Shown here one piece after another: positions 3,016 to 16,013 of a DNA stretch of 16,469 bases; position 1 is the first letter of the stretch, and every line of letters starts with the position of its first letter. Where the stretch lies: contig NW_021825172.1 in assembly GCF_006345805.1 (NCBI RefSeq), positions 1-16,469 on the forward strand, in the 5' to 3' direction. A program made the translations under genes and the position numbers. The DNA is from Octopus sinensis (lineage: Eukaryota). Under the pieces are notes generated by a model. That model did not search any database. It was given only the letters and a program-made list of their open reading frames with translations, and was not told the DNA's origin.

Positions 3016-3062
3016 ACTACTACTACTACTACTACTACTACTATTACTACCACCACCACCAA

Positions 3063-3104
<42 letters not shown>

Positions 3105-3106
3105 AG

Positions 3107-3137
<31 letters not shown>

Positions 3138-3154
3138 AGCTACTACTACTACTG

Positions 3155-3192
<38 letters not shown>

Positions 3193-3305
3193 GTTGTTTT
3201 GCTGCTGCTGCTCCTACCACTAGCACTATTACTACAACTACTACTACTGCAGCTGCTGCTAGAACAACAACAACAACAACAACAACTACTACTACTACTA
3301 CTACT
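3016..3305. repeat. (CTA)n microsatellite with (CCA), (CTG) and (CAA) interruptions
   Basis: Seen directly; produces the poly-T and poly-L pseudo-ORFs. Confidence 0.97.
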
Positions 3306-3319
3306 TGGCCAGTCTTACC

Positions 3320-3535
3320 CATTTCTCGGTATGACTGGCCACCCGGTCCGCCACCTCGTCCCAGTTGTTATCAACCTGGGGGTCGGGGCCAAATGAGACA
3401 CCAGACAGTGTCCGCCGACGCCGTCCCATGGCATCGCCCTACGTCTCCAGGAGCCCAACCACAAACCCACCAATTTGTCGGCGTTGATTTTAGCCCCTGC
3501 AACCGACTCATATTCCTTGAGGATGGTGCCGAGAT
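3320..3535 (-). pseudogene. Fragment of a related Tx1-type RT (end of RT domain)
   Basis: LKEYESVAGAKINADKLVGLWLGSWRRRAMP aligns with ORF2 IKSYEAVAGAKVNKNKSVGLQLGNWRGKLMP. After a frameshift, GVSFGPDPQVDNNWDEVADRVASHTEKW aligns with GVWFGPDLQIEKNWSEVAGKVTALTQTW. Confidence 0.9.
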
Positions 3536-3539
3536 AATA

Positions 3540-3626
3540 ATCTTTTCTACTTTCAACTGAGTACGAATGAAATACAACCAAGCATTTTGTCCGGCGCTGC
3601 ATTGATTCTGCTAGCTCGGGCCGTCG
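3540..3626 (-). mobile_element. SINE family B, internally deleted and decayed copy
   Basis: Tail ATCTTTTCTACT is joined almost directly to the head GAAATAC..AAGCATTTTGTCCGGCG..GATTCTGCTAGCTC. Confidence 0.6.
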
Positions 3627-3660
3627 AATAATAATAATAATAATAAACACGAGCAACAAC

Positions 3661-3872
3661 AATAATAATAATCTTTCCTACTACAGACACCAGGACTGAA
3701 ATTTGGGGACGGGGCGGTACTCGATAACATAGATCCCCAGTACTCAACTGGTACTTATTTTATCGATCTCGAAATGAGGAAAGGCAAAGTCGACTCCGGC
3801 GGAGTTTTAACTCAGAACCTAAAGACGGACGAAATATCGCTAAGCATTTAGTCCGCCGTGCTAACGATTCTG
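3661..3872 (-). mobile_element. SINE family B monomer copy
   Basis: Collinear with 3955-4119 and 4183-4351: GAAATTTGGGG, CCCCAGTAC..AACTGGTACTT, AAAGGCAAAGTCGAC, AACTCAGAAC, GTGCTAACGATTCTG. Confidence 0.85.
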
Positions 3873-3954
3873 ACTAACAACAACAACAACACCAACAACA
3901 ACAACAACAATAATAATAAATATATTAATAGGAACAACAGTGCTTTACAATATA

Positions 3955-4351
3955 CTTTTCTACTCTAGGCACAAGGCCCGAAATTTTGGGGGAGGGGGCC
4001 AGTCGATTAGATCGACTCCAGTACGCAATTGCTACTTCATTTATCGACCCTGAAAGAATGAAAGGCAAAGTCGACCCCGCCAGAATTTGAACTCAGAACG
4101 TAAAGACAGACGAAATACCTATTTCTTTACTACCCACAAGGGGCTAAGCACAGAGATGACAAACAAGGACAGAAAACGGATTAAGTCGATTATACCGACC
4201 CCAGTGTGTAACTGGTACTTATTTAATCGACCCCGAATGGATGAAAGGCAAAGTCGACTTCAACGGAATTTGAACTCAGGAAGTAACAGCAGACGAAATA
4301 CGGCTACGCATTTCGCCCGGCGTGCTAACGATTCAGCCAGCTCGCCGCCTT
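3955..4351 (-). mobile_element. SINE family B, dimeric/composite copy
   Basis: The block AGTCGATTA...TCGACCC...GAAAGGCAAAGTCGAC...GAATTTGAACTCAG...CAGACGAAATAC occurs twice (~4001-4119 and ~4183-4301) with different tails. B-box GAGTTCAAATTC on the minus strand. Confidence 0.88.
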
Positions 4352-4884: not shown

Positions 4885-5265
4885 GGCGCAGGAGTGGCTG
4901 TGTGGTAAGTAGCTTGTTCAGTCCCATTGCGTGGCACCTTGTCTTCTACTATAGCCTCGGGCCGACCAAAGCCTTGTGAGTGGATTTGGTAGACGGAAAC
5001 TGGAAGAAGCCCGTCGTATATATGTATATATGTATATATGTATGTGTTTGTGTGTCTGTGTTTGTCCCCCAGCATTGCTTGACAACCGATGCTGGTGTGT
5101 TTACGTCCCCGTTACTTAGCGGTTCGTCAAAAGAGACCGATAGAATAAGTACTGGGCTTAGAAAGAATAAGTCCCGGGGTCGATTTGCTCGACTAAAGGC
5201 GGTGCTCCAACATGGCCACAATCCATGATTGAAACAAGTAAACAAGTAAAAGAGTAAAAGAGTAA
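4885..5265 (+). mobile_element. SINE family A copy with two short deletions in the head
   Basis: Starts GGCGCAGGAGTGGCTGTGTGG and ends in (GTAAAAGA)n. Lacks about 23 nt before GTTCAGTCCC and about 9 nt of CCTTGGGCAAGTGTC relative to the other copies. Confidence 0.92.
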
Positions 5266-6144: not shown

Positions 6145-6731
6145 TAGCTGATATGTGGCATTTGGTAAATTACGGATTTTGATGTAGCTTTTCTCATCTG
6201 TGTTTCCTGCCTCGAGGTAGGTTTATTTAGAGCTCTTGACGGGAGATACAGTTTTGTTTTGGAAACCCCTCCATCTACCCCGTGTAGTTCTCTTGGACTT
6301 TTTAGGAGGTTATTGAAGAGCTGTGGGTACTTGGCAGTATCTCGTTCTATGTACTGATGGCAATTATTTTCGATTTAGGTACAATTTAGTGGCGCCCCAT
6401 TCTAGTGTTTCCGTAACCTCCAAGGATTTTCCAGATGCATGTCACGACATATATTTCCCGCTTTCGTTCGAGAGAGTAGAGTCTTTCATTTTCCAGCTTC
6501 TCCCAGCAGCTACCTTACTCTTTACTCTTTTACTCTTTTACCTGTTTCAGTCATTTGACTGCGGCCATGCTGGTGCACCGCCTTTACTCGAGCAAATCCC
6601 CCCCAGGACTTATTCTTTCTAAGCCTAGTACTTATTCTATCGGTCTCTTTTTGCCGAACCGCTAAGTTACGGGGACATAAACACACCAGCATCAGTTGTC
6701 AAGCGATGTTGGGGGACAAACAGACACACAA

Positions 6732-9393: not shown

Positions 9394-9606
9394 CCAAAAT
9401 CGTAAAAGAGATTACGAAAAAAAAATGGGGGGAAGGAAATGAGAAAAAGATGGACATGGTAAGAATTAAGGATTTCATTGATTAGACGATATCGAAGAGG
9501 ATATTCAAACAAGAGAAGCGACAAAAAGTACTCGGAAAAAAGAGACTGGATTGTGAAGAGAGTGCAACATATTATACTGCACTCCAGCGTTGCAGTACTT
9601 GTGTAA

Positions 9607-9637
9607 GAGTGGCTGTGTGGTAAGTAGCTCGCTAACC
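9607..9637 (+). mobile_element. SINE family A, 5' piece of the copy interrupted by the LINE
   Basis: GAGTGGCTGTGTGGTAAGTAGCTCGCTAACC matches the head of the other family A copies (e.g. 4892-4915). Confidence 0.9.
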
Positions 9638-10297
9638 TTCGTCGAAGTCGGACGTGTTTTTTTGGCGGTGAGTCACACGTGTTATCGCACGTGGATAATT
9701 TTTCTGCTGTTCAACGTTTGTTGTTGAATATTTTTGTGAACTCTGTGAATTTTTGTACTTTTTCCCGGTGACGGGAAAAAGTTTGTTGTAAGACTGAAGT
9801 GATTATATGACTTTATTAATATTGTTGAACTTGTTAAAGCCGTTGTAGGCTTTATTGTCGTGCCCCCCCCCCGGCGGGGGTGGCATTTGAACTGTTATCC
9901 TTATTAAGAGAAAAAAAAAAAAAAAAATATTATAGGCTTTCTGTTTTTTTTGGGATAGCAACTGTTGTTGTGAAAAATAAACTTTAGCCATTGTAGGCTC
10001 TATGTGACATCCGCCCGTAGCACGGGCGAGATTTGAACTGTCGTCGTCGTGTTTTGGAAAAAATATAGGTTTCCCTTTTTGGGGATTTCGTTGTGGTGGA
10101 AATATTAATTTCAAATCGTCGTAGACTTTGTTGCTACGTCTCACCCCCCAGCGGGGGTGGGATTTGAACGTGGGACTGCGAACATTAAAAAAAAAAAAAA
10201 AAAAAAATTAATTAATTACTTTTGTCCTCTGTGAGAGGATAATTTCTTTTTTTCGAAAGGTCTCCCAGTTTTGTGGGAAACCAATTACTTTTCAACC
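9638..10297 (+). promoter_or_regulatory. LINE 5' UTR / putative internal promoter with tandem structured monomers
   Basis: DPE-like GGACGTG 9650-9656, AP-1-like TGAGTCA 9669-9675, two CACGTG E-boxes (9676-9681, 9688-9693), and three monomers each carrying ATTTGAAC (9885, 10031, 10162). Function is inferred. Confidence 0.65.
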
Positions 10298-11721
10298 ATG
10301 TCGGTTGAAATAATACATGAGAAATCTACTCTTGAAGAGAGCAATGTTGATGTTGGCAATTGCGCCAACGCTGTTAAAAAGTTTTCGGCAGTTGCAGAAG
10401 TAGCAACCGAAAATATAGATATCTCTGCAGACATGCTGGAGAGATATTTTAAAAGAATGAAGGAGGAGGGAGGTGATGTTGTGATATCGCCCTCCTCCAC
10501 CGTGCTAGAAACGGAAAAGAGGACCGTGGTGTTTAAAACCTTCTGCCCACAAGACAAAAGGTTTAAGCACTTCGGGAAGGAAACTATAGAAATATGCCTA
10601 GCTCCGATATGGAAGGATATAGTGTATATCTCGAGGGGACGGGCATACGGATCCGTTGAGGTTCAATTCTCAGAGGAAAAGGTGGCTCGCGGGCACTCCG
10701 TGTCCCCCCTGAAGACCAAGGAAGTGGTACTTTTTCCAACGTACATGGGGCGACGAACATCCCGTGTAAGGATTAATGAAATCCCACCCAAAGTAGACCC
10801 GAAAGAGGTGGTGGCCGGCCTGTTGTTTAATAGGACGGACCGGATAAACATATTACAGACCACATGTTCCGCCCAACGGCTGTGGTTAGGGCGGAACATA
10901 ACGGTTTTAATACAAGGAAAACAGGAGGACATTCAGGCCCTACCAGAGAGAGTACTCGTTGGGGAGAATGTGGCTCTTAGGGTACATGTGGAAGGCCGTA
11001 AGCCCACCTGTTACCATTGCGGAAAAAAGGGCCACATTCGAGCTGACTGTGAAGAAAAAAAAAAGTTGTTGCAAACACCAGGCCCCTCAAATAACCAAAA
11101 AAACCCCGCCCCCGCAAACACACCAGCCCCCACAAACACAAAACTCCCACCCCCGTTGTTGAGGTGCTAGTCCCCAAACAAAGCACAGAAAAACCCAGCC
11201 CCGGCACGCACAAGTCCCTACATAAACAAAATGACCCAACCCCCTCGGAAGACCCGGCACCAACGGAAAACACTGCGCCGAAAGAAACTGCCACCAGCCC
11301 CTCAGATAACACCATGGAGGTTTCAGAGGGTGGATTCACACCAGTGGAAAAGAAACGTTCCCGTAGACCTTCCCCACCCATATCCCCCACACAAAACAGA
11401 AAAAACGCACCACAGACAACAAAAAAGAAACCCTGCCCATCTGTCCCGGAAGAAAACAAAAATGCTATGTTAATAGAACACGATACGACAGACACGTATA
11501 CAAATGACGAAACTGTAAAACACAAAAATACTACGCTGAACATCCAACACCATGAGTGCAATGATAGAAGAACCCCTATACCGGGAACTAAAGGACAGGA
11601 ACCAGAAGGCCATATGGAAGATCGCGGATTTACCGAATTACGCGAAGAGAGAGAGGAGAAGAAGGGGACGGATCCACGTGTGGTGAGGTCATGCCCCACA
11701 TCTTCAAAGAAATGTAAGTAG
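10298..11721 (+). CDS. LINE ORF1 (gag-like nucleic-acid-binding protein with zinc knuckle), one frameshift
   Basis: ATG at 10298 in ACCATG context. CYHCGKKGHIRADC is a CX2CX4HX4C knuckle. ORF 10271-11170 joins ORF 11164-11721 if one A is added to the A-run at 11140-11143 (reading ...PAPTNTKTPTPVVEVLVPK...). Pro/Thr/Lys-rich tail, about 474 aa reconstructed. A 17-nt spacer precedes the ORF2 ATG. Confidence 0.85.
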
Positions 11722-11738
11722 AACCTTTACTTTTTGTA

Positions 11739-14700
11739 ATGGCATCTCTTAACCTTGGTTGTTTGAATGTGCGTGGTTTGAGTTCGAAGTGGAAGCAGGC
11801 GTGTTTCCTCGACGATCTCAGATCACATGATATGCATGTGATGGTTGCTACAGAGACCAAGCTGGACGGTCTACAAGCCTTCTCGCCTCTCCTGAATGAC
11901 TACGAGAAAATCATGTCTCCCGGTCAGACCGGAGGACGAGGGGGCGTAGTGGTACTGATCCGTAAAAGCTTGGCTCTGCAGACAAGTACAGTCTATGTGG
12001 ACCCTGAAGGTGGGCTGGTCGTCCTTGATGTGACACACAGCAGTAAGGCCTTCAGGTTGATCGGACTCTATGCACCTTGTGCTAGAGGCTTCCAAACTGA
12101 TTTTTATCGGCGCCTAGAGAACTTTCTCGTGACGTCGAAGACTTTAGTAGTATTAGGAGACTTTAATGCTATCGTTGACGTACACATCGATAGTGTTGGC
12201 TCGATCCATAGGAAAGTGAACTCACGTCTCGTGGACCTGCTTAAGCGGTTTCAGCTGGCAGATCGTTACAGACTTGACCATCCGAACGTCCCAGAGTGGA
12301 CCTGGATGAGTGGCGACGGAAGGTTCAAGTCTTATCTAGACAGGATAGTGATAAGAACTAGAGATAAATCTAGTTTTAGTTGTCCACAGCTTGTCCAGGT
12401 ACCCTATACGGACCATAGAATGGTCAAGTGTAGACTGGACATAGATAGCACACTAAAGATAGGAAACGGCTACTGGAAGCTAAACAAGTCTATTTTGACT
12501 TGTGAGGCATACCGCAGTCGGATTAAGGAGTTAGTGCAGAGGGCGTTAACCGGAGGAGTGGTTAACAACCGGTGGTGGTTCGCCCTGAAAAGAGCCATTC
12601 GATTCGAGTCCATTAGGTTTAGTAAGCAACTAAGACTAGATAGGGCTAGAATAGAAGAGCAATTAGCAAAGAAGTTAGAGGAGGCGTTGAGGTTGGGCTC
12701 TGCATCTCACATTTTGGCGGCGAGAACGGCATTAGACCGTCACCTCAAAACCAAACATGAGGGGTGTAGAATCCGGGCTAAAGTACGAACATTGGGCCGC
12801 GAGGGAATTAATGTTGCCGGATGGGCCCGTACGGTAGAAACCCAGCGTGGCAACAATTCCACAATTAGGTCTCTTGTTGATGGAAACGGATGCACGGTGA
12901 AGGAGCGGGACGAGATGTGTGAGGCACTTTACAAGCACTTCGCCGAGTTGTTCGGGAGGTGCGGGACGCTGGATCATGGTGAGGCCCTTAGGGACTTCCT
13001 GTCTGGTGGCCCGCGTCTCTCGGCACGAGAGGCTGAGTGCTGTGAGGGGCCAATCACAGCCGAGGAAGTAATCGAGGCGTTGGGCGAGTGCCCCGGGGAG
13101 AAGTCGCCGGGTCTCGATGGTCTGCCCTATGAGTTTTTTAAAAGTATGCCAGACTTGTTCGGACACCTGCTGGCTGGCGTCTTCGCCAACTGGCAGCAGA
13201 ATGGGAAAATTCCCAAGTCTGCGAGCCGGGGTGTGGTGACGTTAATCAGGAAGGACCCGAGCAAGGGGGACGAGATAGGCAACTTCAGGCCCATAACTCT
13301 GCTGAACACAGAGTTAAAGATTTTGGCCAATGTGCTGGCGAAAAGGTTGGCGCGGGTCGTGGATAAACTTGTCGGAGAAGCGCAAACGTGCGCTATCCCG
13401 GGCAGGACGATACACGACAATCTCCACCTTATACGCTATTCCTTAGAGCGGGTCGGGAAGCTTTCTGGCGCAGGAGGGGCACTGGTACATTTAGACCAGT
13501 CTAAGGCATTTGATAGGGTCGACCATCGGTACTTGGCGGCGGTCCTCGGGGAGGCTGGCCTGGGCCCGATCTTTCGAGGTTGGATCGCTGCTTTGTATAG
13601 CGACATCGAGTCTGTGGTCAAGGTGAACGGCTCTCTTTCGAAGCCGTTCAGGATCGAGCGTTCAGTCCGTCAGGGGTGTCCCCTGTCCCCGCTTCTATAT
13701 GTGTTGGCTCTTGAGCCTTTGCTACGGAAGTTGGAGGCAATAGGGGGCGCACCGCATGATCTATGGTGTGGAAGAGGAGCTACGGCGTACGCGGATGACA
13801 TCTCCATCATCGTGGCAGATGTGGACCAGCTTCCAGTGGTGGAAGAGGCCATCAAAAGCTACGAGGCGGTGGCAGGAGCAAAGGTGAACAAGAACAAGTC
13901 GGTCGGTTTGCAACTCGGCAACTGGAGGGGCAAGCTGATGCCGTCCAATAACGTAGTGGGGCGTTGGACGGAAGGTCCTGTTAAGCTGCTCGGAGTCTGG
14001 TTCGGGCCAGACCTCCAGATAGAGAAAAATTGGAGTGAGGTAGCCGGCAAGGTGACCGCTCTAACCCAGACCTGGTCTGGACGGCGTTATCCTTGCTAGG
14101 GAGGGCGGAGGTGGTGCAGATGTTCATAGCATCAGTAGTCACCTACCGCCTGACCGTGGTGCCTTGCCCCGATTTGTGGCTGAACAAGTTGGAGAGAATC
14201 CTTTTCCACTTTTTGTGGAAAGGAGGGAAGCCACTTGTAAAGCGCTCTGTCTGCTGCCAGAAACCGCTAAAGGGTGGGCTAGGGATGCCTTGGCTGAAGA
14301 TGCGAAAGGTCGCGTTAAGGTTGAGGCACCTCTGGCTTTACTTGGATGGAGAACAGGTGTGGTCACCGCACGTTCGGTTCTACTTTCCGCGATTAACGTC
14401 CTTAACGGACATTGGTAATTGGATCAAGCAGAGACCTAGGCTGGGGGACTGGCAATTGGAGTGCCGTCAGGCACTTCAACTACTCTCTCGGGCGGGCAAT
14501 GCCGGCAACAGGAGTTCCACGCGGATTTCTATAGCGGGTTAGTGGAGTTTAGTTAAGTCCGAAGACGCCTTGGGGGAGACCCTGGGCTACGATGAAAATC
14601 AGTTGACCAACCTGTTCCGGAGAACGTTCGGGCCGGGGTACCTGGATAATTACCAGAAATCCCTGGCCTGGCAGTGTTTCCGTGCGGCGTTACCTGTTCG

Positions 14701-15139
14701 CGACAAGCTGTCAAGGCACGGAAGTGCCGTCTCGCCGACATGTCCGCGATGTGAGCAGGAGGGGAAACCGTCTTGCACGCATTCGTGGAGTGTCCGGAGT
14801 TATCGGGACTGATTGCTTTCGCCGAACAACTGTTGTCAGTGAATGGAAGAGTACAGCTATCAGCGGAGTCTATCATTGAGATTGTGCCACCTCCTTTCCT
14901 CAGCAGGGAAAGGAAGGCTTGTTTTTCCTGCGTAGTAGCCATACTGAAAGAAACAGTATGGAAGACGTGCACGAAAGGTATAGTGACAGGTACCTTTGTA
15001 TCCGGCCAGGGGTTGGTTAACTTTTTCAGTTACCACCTCGGTAGTAAGATCAGGCTGGAGAAGGTGTCTGTCACGAGACATGTTTGCGAAAAGATGGAAG
15101 TCTGTAGCATGCAAGCTGCGTATATCTGGCACCAGGTAA
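11739..15139 (+). CDS. LINE ORF2: apurinic-like endonuclease + reverse transcriptase + C-terminal zinc finger, frameshifted in the last ~1 kb
   Basis: APE motifs LNVRGL, ATETK, GDFN, YLDRI, YTDH. RT motifs KSPGLDG, FRPITLLN, DQSKAFDRV, VRQGCPLSP, YADD, LLGV. Open for 786 codons, then continues through frameshifts near 14086 (RRLSLLGR), 14523 and 14551 (DFYSGLVEFKSED), 14761 (CPRCEQEGETVLHAFVEC = CX2CX8HX4C) and 15061 (SRDMFAKRW). Inferred stop TAA 15137-15139, about 1130 aa. Confidence 0.93.
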
Positions 15140-15345
15140 GTGTGGCCGGATCAAGAAGTAAAGGTTCTACCCAGATGGCTGGTATCCGTGCCCTACTGTA
15201 TAATAACAAATTTTTAAAACTTTATATTGTAAATATTATATATATTTTATTGTAATCACCAACGTTTTAAGCTACTACACCCTATATGTTTGTCTGTAAT
15301 TGTATGTCCCCTCTATGTAACGCCTTAATGGCGAATCTTTCATGA

Positions 15346-15351
15346 AATAAA
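15346..15351 (+). terminator. Polyadenylation signal at LINE 3' end
   Basis: AATAAA overlaps the start of the right-hand duplication; no poly(A) tail follows. Confidence 0.6.
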
Positions 15352-15497
15352 GTAGCTTGCTAACCAACCACATGGTCCGGGTTCAGTCCCACTGCGTGGC
15401 ACCTTGGGCAAGTGTCTTCTACTATAGCCCCGGGCCAACCAATGCCTTGTGAGTGGATTTGGTAGACGGAAACTGAAAGAAGCCCGTCGTATCTATG

Positions 15498-15535
<38 letters not shown>

Positions 15536-15760
15536 TATATATGTTGTGTGTTTATGTGTTTGTGTGTCTGTGTTTGTCCCCCCAGCATTGCTTGAAAACC
15601 GATGCTGGTGTGTTTACGTCCCCGTCACTTAGCGGTTCGGCAAAAGAGACCGATAGAATAAGTACTGGGCTTACAAAGAATAAGTCCCGAGGTCGATTTG
15701 CTCGACTAAAGGCGGTGCTCCAGCATGGCCGCAGTCAAATGACTGAAACAAGTAAAAGAG
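15350..15760 (+). mobile_element. SINE family A, 3' piece of the copy interrupted by the LINE
   Basis: Continues the consensus: B-box-like GGGTTCAGTCCC, ACCTTGGGCAAGT, central (TA)n/(TG)n tract, 3' tail AAGTAAAAGAG. Confidence 0.93.
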
Positions 15761-16013
15761 TGTGGCTAGCTTTTAATTCATCATCAAATGCAGGAATTTT
15801 GCTTTTCCATTAGATTTGAATTGTGGTTAGGGGACTCACTATGTATATAGATAACGCATATAAATACCAAAATAGAAACCTTGACCGTCGTTCTGTCCAG
15901 TATCCCATATAGTGGCTTAACAAAAATGGCTAAGAAAGAGATAGTAAGGGATTAGCTGTATTACTAAAGAGACAAGACAAAAGAAGACCGAAAGGGAAGT
16001 AAAAGCCGTAACC

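Follow-up and report, generated by a model that had tools for sequence, protein, structure and literature searches.

A Tx1-like LINE in the head of an octopus tRNA-type SINE, with a DPE-like word near its 5′ end and a possible transcription start inside the target duplication

How target-specific LINEs outside the rDNA are transcribed, and how they form precise 5′ junctions, is the question raised by a split SINE in Octopus sinensis. For the SINEU families mobilised by Tx1 elements, both transcription and the precision of the 5′ junction have been described as an open question (PMC4494074). The window analysed here is the whole 16,469-nt stretch of contig NW_021825172.1 (assembly GCF_006345805.1), and all features described below lie on its forward strand unless stated otherwise. 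A sequence-only reading of this locus had proposed that the duplicated target supplies the initiator for a downstream promoter element (DPE) inside the LINE, and that the left duplication may have been copied from RNA.

The window contains five copies of a single SINE, which we take to be of tRNA origin, and one of the five is split by the LINE. The 5′ end of the host SINE (9607–9621) matches the heads of the four other copies and includes a box A-like word (9610–9620), and the remainder of the SINE (15366–15761) carries a box B-like word (15380–15390), these box labels likewise being our assumption; the insertion point thus lies between the two words. The left copy of the target duplication (9622–9637) has C at 9630 and is identical at 15 of 16 positions to the right copy (15350–15365), which has T at that place. 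Both copies bear the diagnostic A of the host SINE subfamily, an A that they have in common with SINE copy 529. ARAGORN predicted no tRNAs in the window, and Rfam returned no matches there at gathering score; searches of the 5′ region and of one SINE head gave matches at chance level only, with no ribozyme in the 5′ region. Another SINE copy (4892–4925) lacks 23 nt between boxes A and B, the gap beginning inside the same 16-mer target. Elsewhere, the window includes a fragment similar to the 3′ portion of an ORF2 relative (3315–3677, minus strand), three copies of a different repeat of ~136 bp (3735–4334) and a long (ACT)n array (3016–3305).

The element itself (9638–15349; 5,712 bp) is a decayed, 5′-complete, Tx1-like LINE. 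At 12 nt inside its 5′ end stands the DPE-like word GGACGTG (9650–9656), of which relatives carry variants, followed by a run of seven T (9657–9663) at which any Pol III transcript reading through from the head of the SINE would terminate. Two CACGTG words, which we take to be E-box-like, form the arms of one hairpin (9676–9693) and are two of the four such words in the window. The 5′ UTR further includes three diverged repeats of ~140 bp (9762–10180; 68% column identity), each ending in a hairpin and the invariant ATTTGAAC, which, taken on the minus strand, presumably resembles a Pol III box B; these repeats have fold z-scores of −3.1, −2.0 and −2.7 against shuffles and belong to no Rfam family, and the junction region folds no better than shuffles (z −1.3 to −0.2). 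ORF1 (10298–11721) encodes a CCHC zinc knuckle, and its open frame shifts between 11095 and 11170, a break deduced from two overlapping frames. ORF2 (11739–15255, the 3′ end being approximate) encodes an apurinic-type endonuclease and a reverse transcriptase and is broken near 14082, 14520, 14548, 14760 and 15061, as judged from indels relative to contigs of other copies. The frame breaks of this copy reflect either decay or assembly errors. The LINE ends without a poly(A) tail in the DNA, and the last two bases of its AATAAA (15346–15351) are the first two of the right duplication. Element tails in the tandem junctions described below end in the same way, with AATAAA completed by the target and no poly(A).

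Profile matches to ORF2 (PF03372 for the endonuclease and PF00078 for the reverse transcriptase) and comparison with solved structures, among which human L1 ORF2p is the closest (E 2e-54, versus 2e-22 for R2), place the element in the L1 group. The ORF1 knuckle (PF00098, E 4.6e-05) has look-alikes in CCHC, RRM and ZCCHC3-type clusters, and we take a CCHC knuckle in ORF1 to be a feature of the L1 group and of Tx1. In a quick tree of 54 rows, built without any named Tx1 reference, the reverse transcriptase falls, apart from plant L1s, in a 27-row clade (SH-aLRT 98) that also holds the loci L007 and L008. We regard membership of the Tx1 clade as likely. Both loci are Tx1-like, lie in (TC)n microsatellites and have a CGTG word ~20 nt inside the 5′ end (L007, ~740–830 and ~6385–6430; L008, ~60–190); L007 has (TC)n on both ends, like Kibi, and for L008 the reading covers just the left end. 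The nearest named relative of ORF2 is from Argonauta hians, with 50% identity over 65% of the query. The metagenome relatives that we took, 80 of 297 confirmed loci, are distant (23–48%) and have no SINE or 5′ DNA in common with the window; a check of 17 loci for duplications gave a clear picture for one alone, the (TC)n-flanked L007, and no tRNA was found in the 24 that were scanned. ORF2 had no confirmed relative among viral contigs, the junction pattern had no matches in metagenome contigs, and the SINE-head pattern had none in prokaryote genomes. Octopus vulgaris has been reported to be rich in SINEs and to have recently active L1-Tx1 families (PMC13282606).

Other copies of the family were read from contigs of public sequencing runs (24 listed), of which four were aligned per region, with abundance expressed in single-copy depths. 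At a likeness cut-off of 85%, which favours conserved, gap-free junctions, 15, 33, 23 and 0 contigs from the four runs, 71 in all, aligned to 9619–9765; the run with none was X3, presumably an RNA run, and its zero carries no weight for expression. The depth ratio of the last target bases to the first element bases was 1.00 in run X1, 0.90 in X2 and 0.87 in X10, and in all three runs with cover 87–100% of the 5′-end depth was joined to the 16-mer, a figure that refers to the 5′ side only. Each run holds at most about 18–39 single-copy depths of 5′ ends, a figure inflated by contig overlaps. Target specificity has been defined by a single sequence type in over 20% of flanks (PMC4494074), and on its 5′ side this LINE family lies above that mark. 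No indels between 9633 and 9655 were listed among the 71 contigs and no loose end at 9638 was present among the 18 of 25 loose ends listed, which indicates that full-length 5′ junctions are precise. Nor did any of these listed loose ends show extra 5′ bases before the element start in other 5′-complete copies. Since other copies share both the boundary and the target, 9638 is the 5′ boundary of the family, this copy is untruncated, and the family is target-specific on the 5′ side. A simple 5′ truncation of this copy, in which other full-length copies would carry extra 5′ bases of their own and which the sequence-only reading had named as fatal to its proposal, is rejected on the loose ends listed.

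Loose ends at 9622 (X1, X10) read like the 3′ tail of the element, giving the order tail, 16-mer, head; from their sequence, these are head-to-tail copies sandwiching a single 16-mer. Many pieces in X2 begin at 9633–9635, which means that the left 16-mer differs from copy to copy and does not belong to the element as a constant component. Several further elements have the same target and agree over their first 22–35 nt before diverging (loose ends behind 9660–9673), some of them with another CACGTG-like word, and this sequence pattern suggests a 5′ module common to several families. Among contigs aligned to 9560–15420, SINE contigs dominate both junctions, and the targeting of the family was read from the 5′ side. 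The whole-element alignment reveals a multicopy family in which depth from the ORF2 start onward is 15–22-fold above that just before it (three runs). This rise from 11716 onward means either that many relatives share ORF2 without this ORF1 and 5′ UTR or that many copies are truncated there.

The proposed promoter depends on the position of GGACGTG relative to a start in the duplication. As claimed in the sequence-only reading, the word fits the DPE consensus RGWYV(T) and G9650 is at +28 from A9623. That reading had also taken A9623 for the first duplicated base, but the duplication begins at 9622 and A9623 is its second base. The TAAGT proposed as initiator (Inr) is present at 9621–9625, although the six-base word (9621–9626) matches the consensus TCAKTY at only four of six positions and has no pyrimidine at −1. 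Against BBCABW it has one miss, with A at −1 where a pyrimidine is required; because of this A, A9623 as the exact +1 is weakly supported. A pyrimidine-purine start is provided by T9621/A9622, and from A9622 the word sits at +29; RGWYV(T) falls at +28 to +32/33 for A9623 only. CGG occupies +27 to +29 from A9623, so that half of the revised MTE is matched (CGG present, CGANC at two of four). At the element boundary the bases at −1/+1 are C/T, which would make a poor Pol II start. In the tandem junctions A precedes the 16-mer, so the Inr match is worse still there. In Drosophila, RGWYV(T) is placed at +28 and a one-base shift reduces activity several-fold (PMC5580651). An annelid uses pyrimidine-purine starts, and its DPE promoters had no special features, the authors considering that the element might be non-functional (PMC7854359).

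Loose pairs of TCAKT (at most one miss) with RGWYVT at +28 number five in the window on both strands, against 5.55 in 20 shuffles. When the target was held fixed and shuffling was confined to the first 120 bases of the element, the chance of a qualifying A was 0.7% for the 6-mer and 1.6% for the 5-mer, and under looser rules, by which every A or YR start of the duplication counts and the word may lie at +28 or +29, it was 4–20%, reaching 9% for the 6-mer or 20% for the 5-mer. The Inr–DPE coincidence is suggestive, not striking.

Relatives add information on the word itself. The change G9650A accounts for 35%, 24% and 14% of depth in three runs, a diverged relative found in both X1 and X2, and probably representing a single locus, has AGACAT at 12 nt from the target although its spacer differs at 6 of 12 positions, and another relative has GGACCT, the last two being comparisons made by eye. 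RGWYVT allows each of the three kinds of change in the word, as only 5 of 18 single changes would be (P about 0.02–0.06), and two of the three are CpG-type transitions. The spacing is kept in one relative, and one single-copy locus with an extra T in the target has it shifted by 1 nt.

The C at 9630 had been offered as a sign that the left duplication was templated by RNA. The observation itself is correct, as the right copy and the four other SINE heads in the window all have T. However, the expected recurrence of C in left duplications at other loci was seen in neither of the two junctions that are readable there, both of which have T, and C9630 as a shared family base is accordingly rejected. 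These two are loose-end junctions, the table of variant letters being confined to positions at least 31 nt from the end of a piece. Among the 15 contigs of X1, a single one reaches 99% likeness or more, without cover of 9630, and no X1 contig covering 9630 is identical to the window. A second X1 record (depth 280, ~6 closest copies, 9622–9711) has one difference from the window, which depth bookkeeping places within 9622–9651 and which we infer to be position 9630. At 1–3% decay, one mismatch in a 16-bp duplication has a probability of 0.28–0.62. This copy also has several frame breaks private to it. From these readings C9630 is likely to be a later private point mutation. It gives no support to RNA templating and speaks no more against it, as a copy templated by a T-bearing donor would look normal.

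We tentatively favour a Pol II start at A9622 or A9623, within the left duplication, directed by the conserved DPE-like word, with C9630 as a later mutation. In the standard target-primed model, nicks 16 nt apart yield a 16-nt duplication. After such nicks the left arm would end in a 3′ overhang consisting of the 16-mer. If the DPE-like word sets the start within the left duplicated bases, the RNA would begin in the duplication, the end of its cDNA would be complementary to the left overhang, and second-strand priming could be precise. Each on-target copy would then rebuild its own start site from duplicated bases, and the 16-mer would double as the site at which a further copy could land. The conserved word and its spacing, the C/T at the boundary as a poor start, and the precise junctions count in favour of a start in the duplication; the weak Inr, its worse context in tandem junctions, loose Inr–DPE pairs that are no commoner than in shuffles, the doubt about the annelid DPE and the precision of ancestral R1 count against it. 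A precedent exists in melanogaster-type R1, in which target bases on the RNA give precise junctions, but R1 elements of the ancestral type, with a 14-bp duplication, have no target bases on their RNA and yet most of their full-length junctions are precise (PMC2718515), so precision alone proves little. It is rather unlikely, though worth considering, that the Pol II core promoter is truly split, with the DPE contributed by the element and the initiator rebuilt from duplicated SINE bases.

A realistic, if doubtful, alternative is an ordinary Tx1-type LINE, target-specific but with its promoter wholly inside the element, which would start at or within a few bases of 9638 and have both duplications made from DNA; GGACGTG, at +13, would then be a factor site or an RNA signal and its +28 fit a matter of chance. 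The pairing does arise by chance in 1–20% of cases depending on strictness, the Inr is poor, both duplication copies carry the diagnostic A of the host subfamily, and the two CACGTG words and the structured repeats downstream could supply such a promoter. It sits less well with the C/T at the boundary, with a spacer whose length is kept in one relative while its sequence diverges, and with changes in the word that follow the degeneracy of the DPE. We consider it improbable that the element has no start of its own and that its RNA is trimmed from upstream host or tandem-array transcription, the target bases being carried as in R2 or melanogaster R1. Tandem junctions exist, dependence on flanking transcription has been proposed for SINEU mobilised by Tx1-Mar and is known for R2 (PMC4494074), and the 5′ UTR repeats are structured, but the 5′ region has no Rfam ribozyme match and the junction region lacks folding beyond that of shuffles. 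The Pol III form of such read-through, from the SINE, is unlikely and was rejected on the seven-T run, oligo(T) being a terminator of Pol III (PMC4494074); the box B is moreover 5.7 kb away. The strongest form of the earlier proposal, in which RNA was the template for the left 16-mer of this copy and C9630 marks a lineage by inheritance, appears very improbable. The two duplications differ at exactly one base, and the place of 9630 outside the variant table leaves room for a minority C lineage; against this stand the T in both junctions read, the sole closely matching X1 contig, which does not reach 9630, and the fact that decay alone predicts a mismatch.

Returning to a start inside the duplication, the element can be compared with known systems. 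Like Tx1, Keno, Kibi, Koshi, Tx1-Mar and SINEU-3, it is an animal L1-group element at a fixed site in a multicopy repeat, and as in SINEU-3 the duplication is 16 nt long and is sandwiched between tandem insertions (PMC4494074). The Tx1 clade targets listed there are piggyBac, Mariner, Harbinger and LTR elements, U2, U5, 5S, satellites and microsatellites, whereas here the target is the head of a tRNA-type SINE, between boxes A and B; no promoter word is reported there for SINEU, in contrast to the DPE-like word found here. DPE-bearing non-LTR elements include jockey, Doc, G, I, F, SART1 and TRAS1 (PMC4748587), and these, together with the Pr77 of L1Tc, resemble the octopus element in that a DPE-type word built around CGTG lies close to the 5′ end (PMC4748587, PMC5580651). 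In those elements the word is at +25 to +32 from a start at their own 5′ end, whereas here it is at +13 of the element, so that the start would fall in target DNA. In melanogaster-type R1 and in R2, target bases at the 5′ end of the RNA pair with the cut target, which makes the junctions precise (PMC2718515), as we propose may happen here; melanogaster R1, however, combines a 9-bp target deletion with rDNA co-transcription, in contrast to the 16-nt duplication and candidate split Pol II core promoter of this element. The promoter geometry is a candidate reason for RNA carrying target bases.

A literature search, with most subscription papers, Repbase and Dfam outside its range, found no LINE targeting a SINE head in cephalopods and no core promoter completed by target duplication. 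If the start maps elsewhere, a Tx1-like family specific for the SINE head remains, which would be a modest addition. If the split promoter is true, one 16-mer would serve as start site, guide for 5′ joining, completion of the 3′ AATAAA and landing pad, and off-target copies would be born silent. A promoter completed by duplication, if true, would make expression depend on correct targeting, would account for the stacking of tandem copies at a SINE site where they do no harm, and would provide a short candidate DPE from a mollusc.
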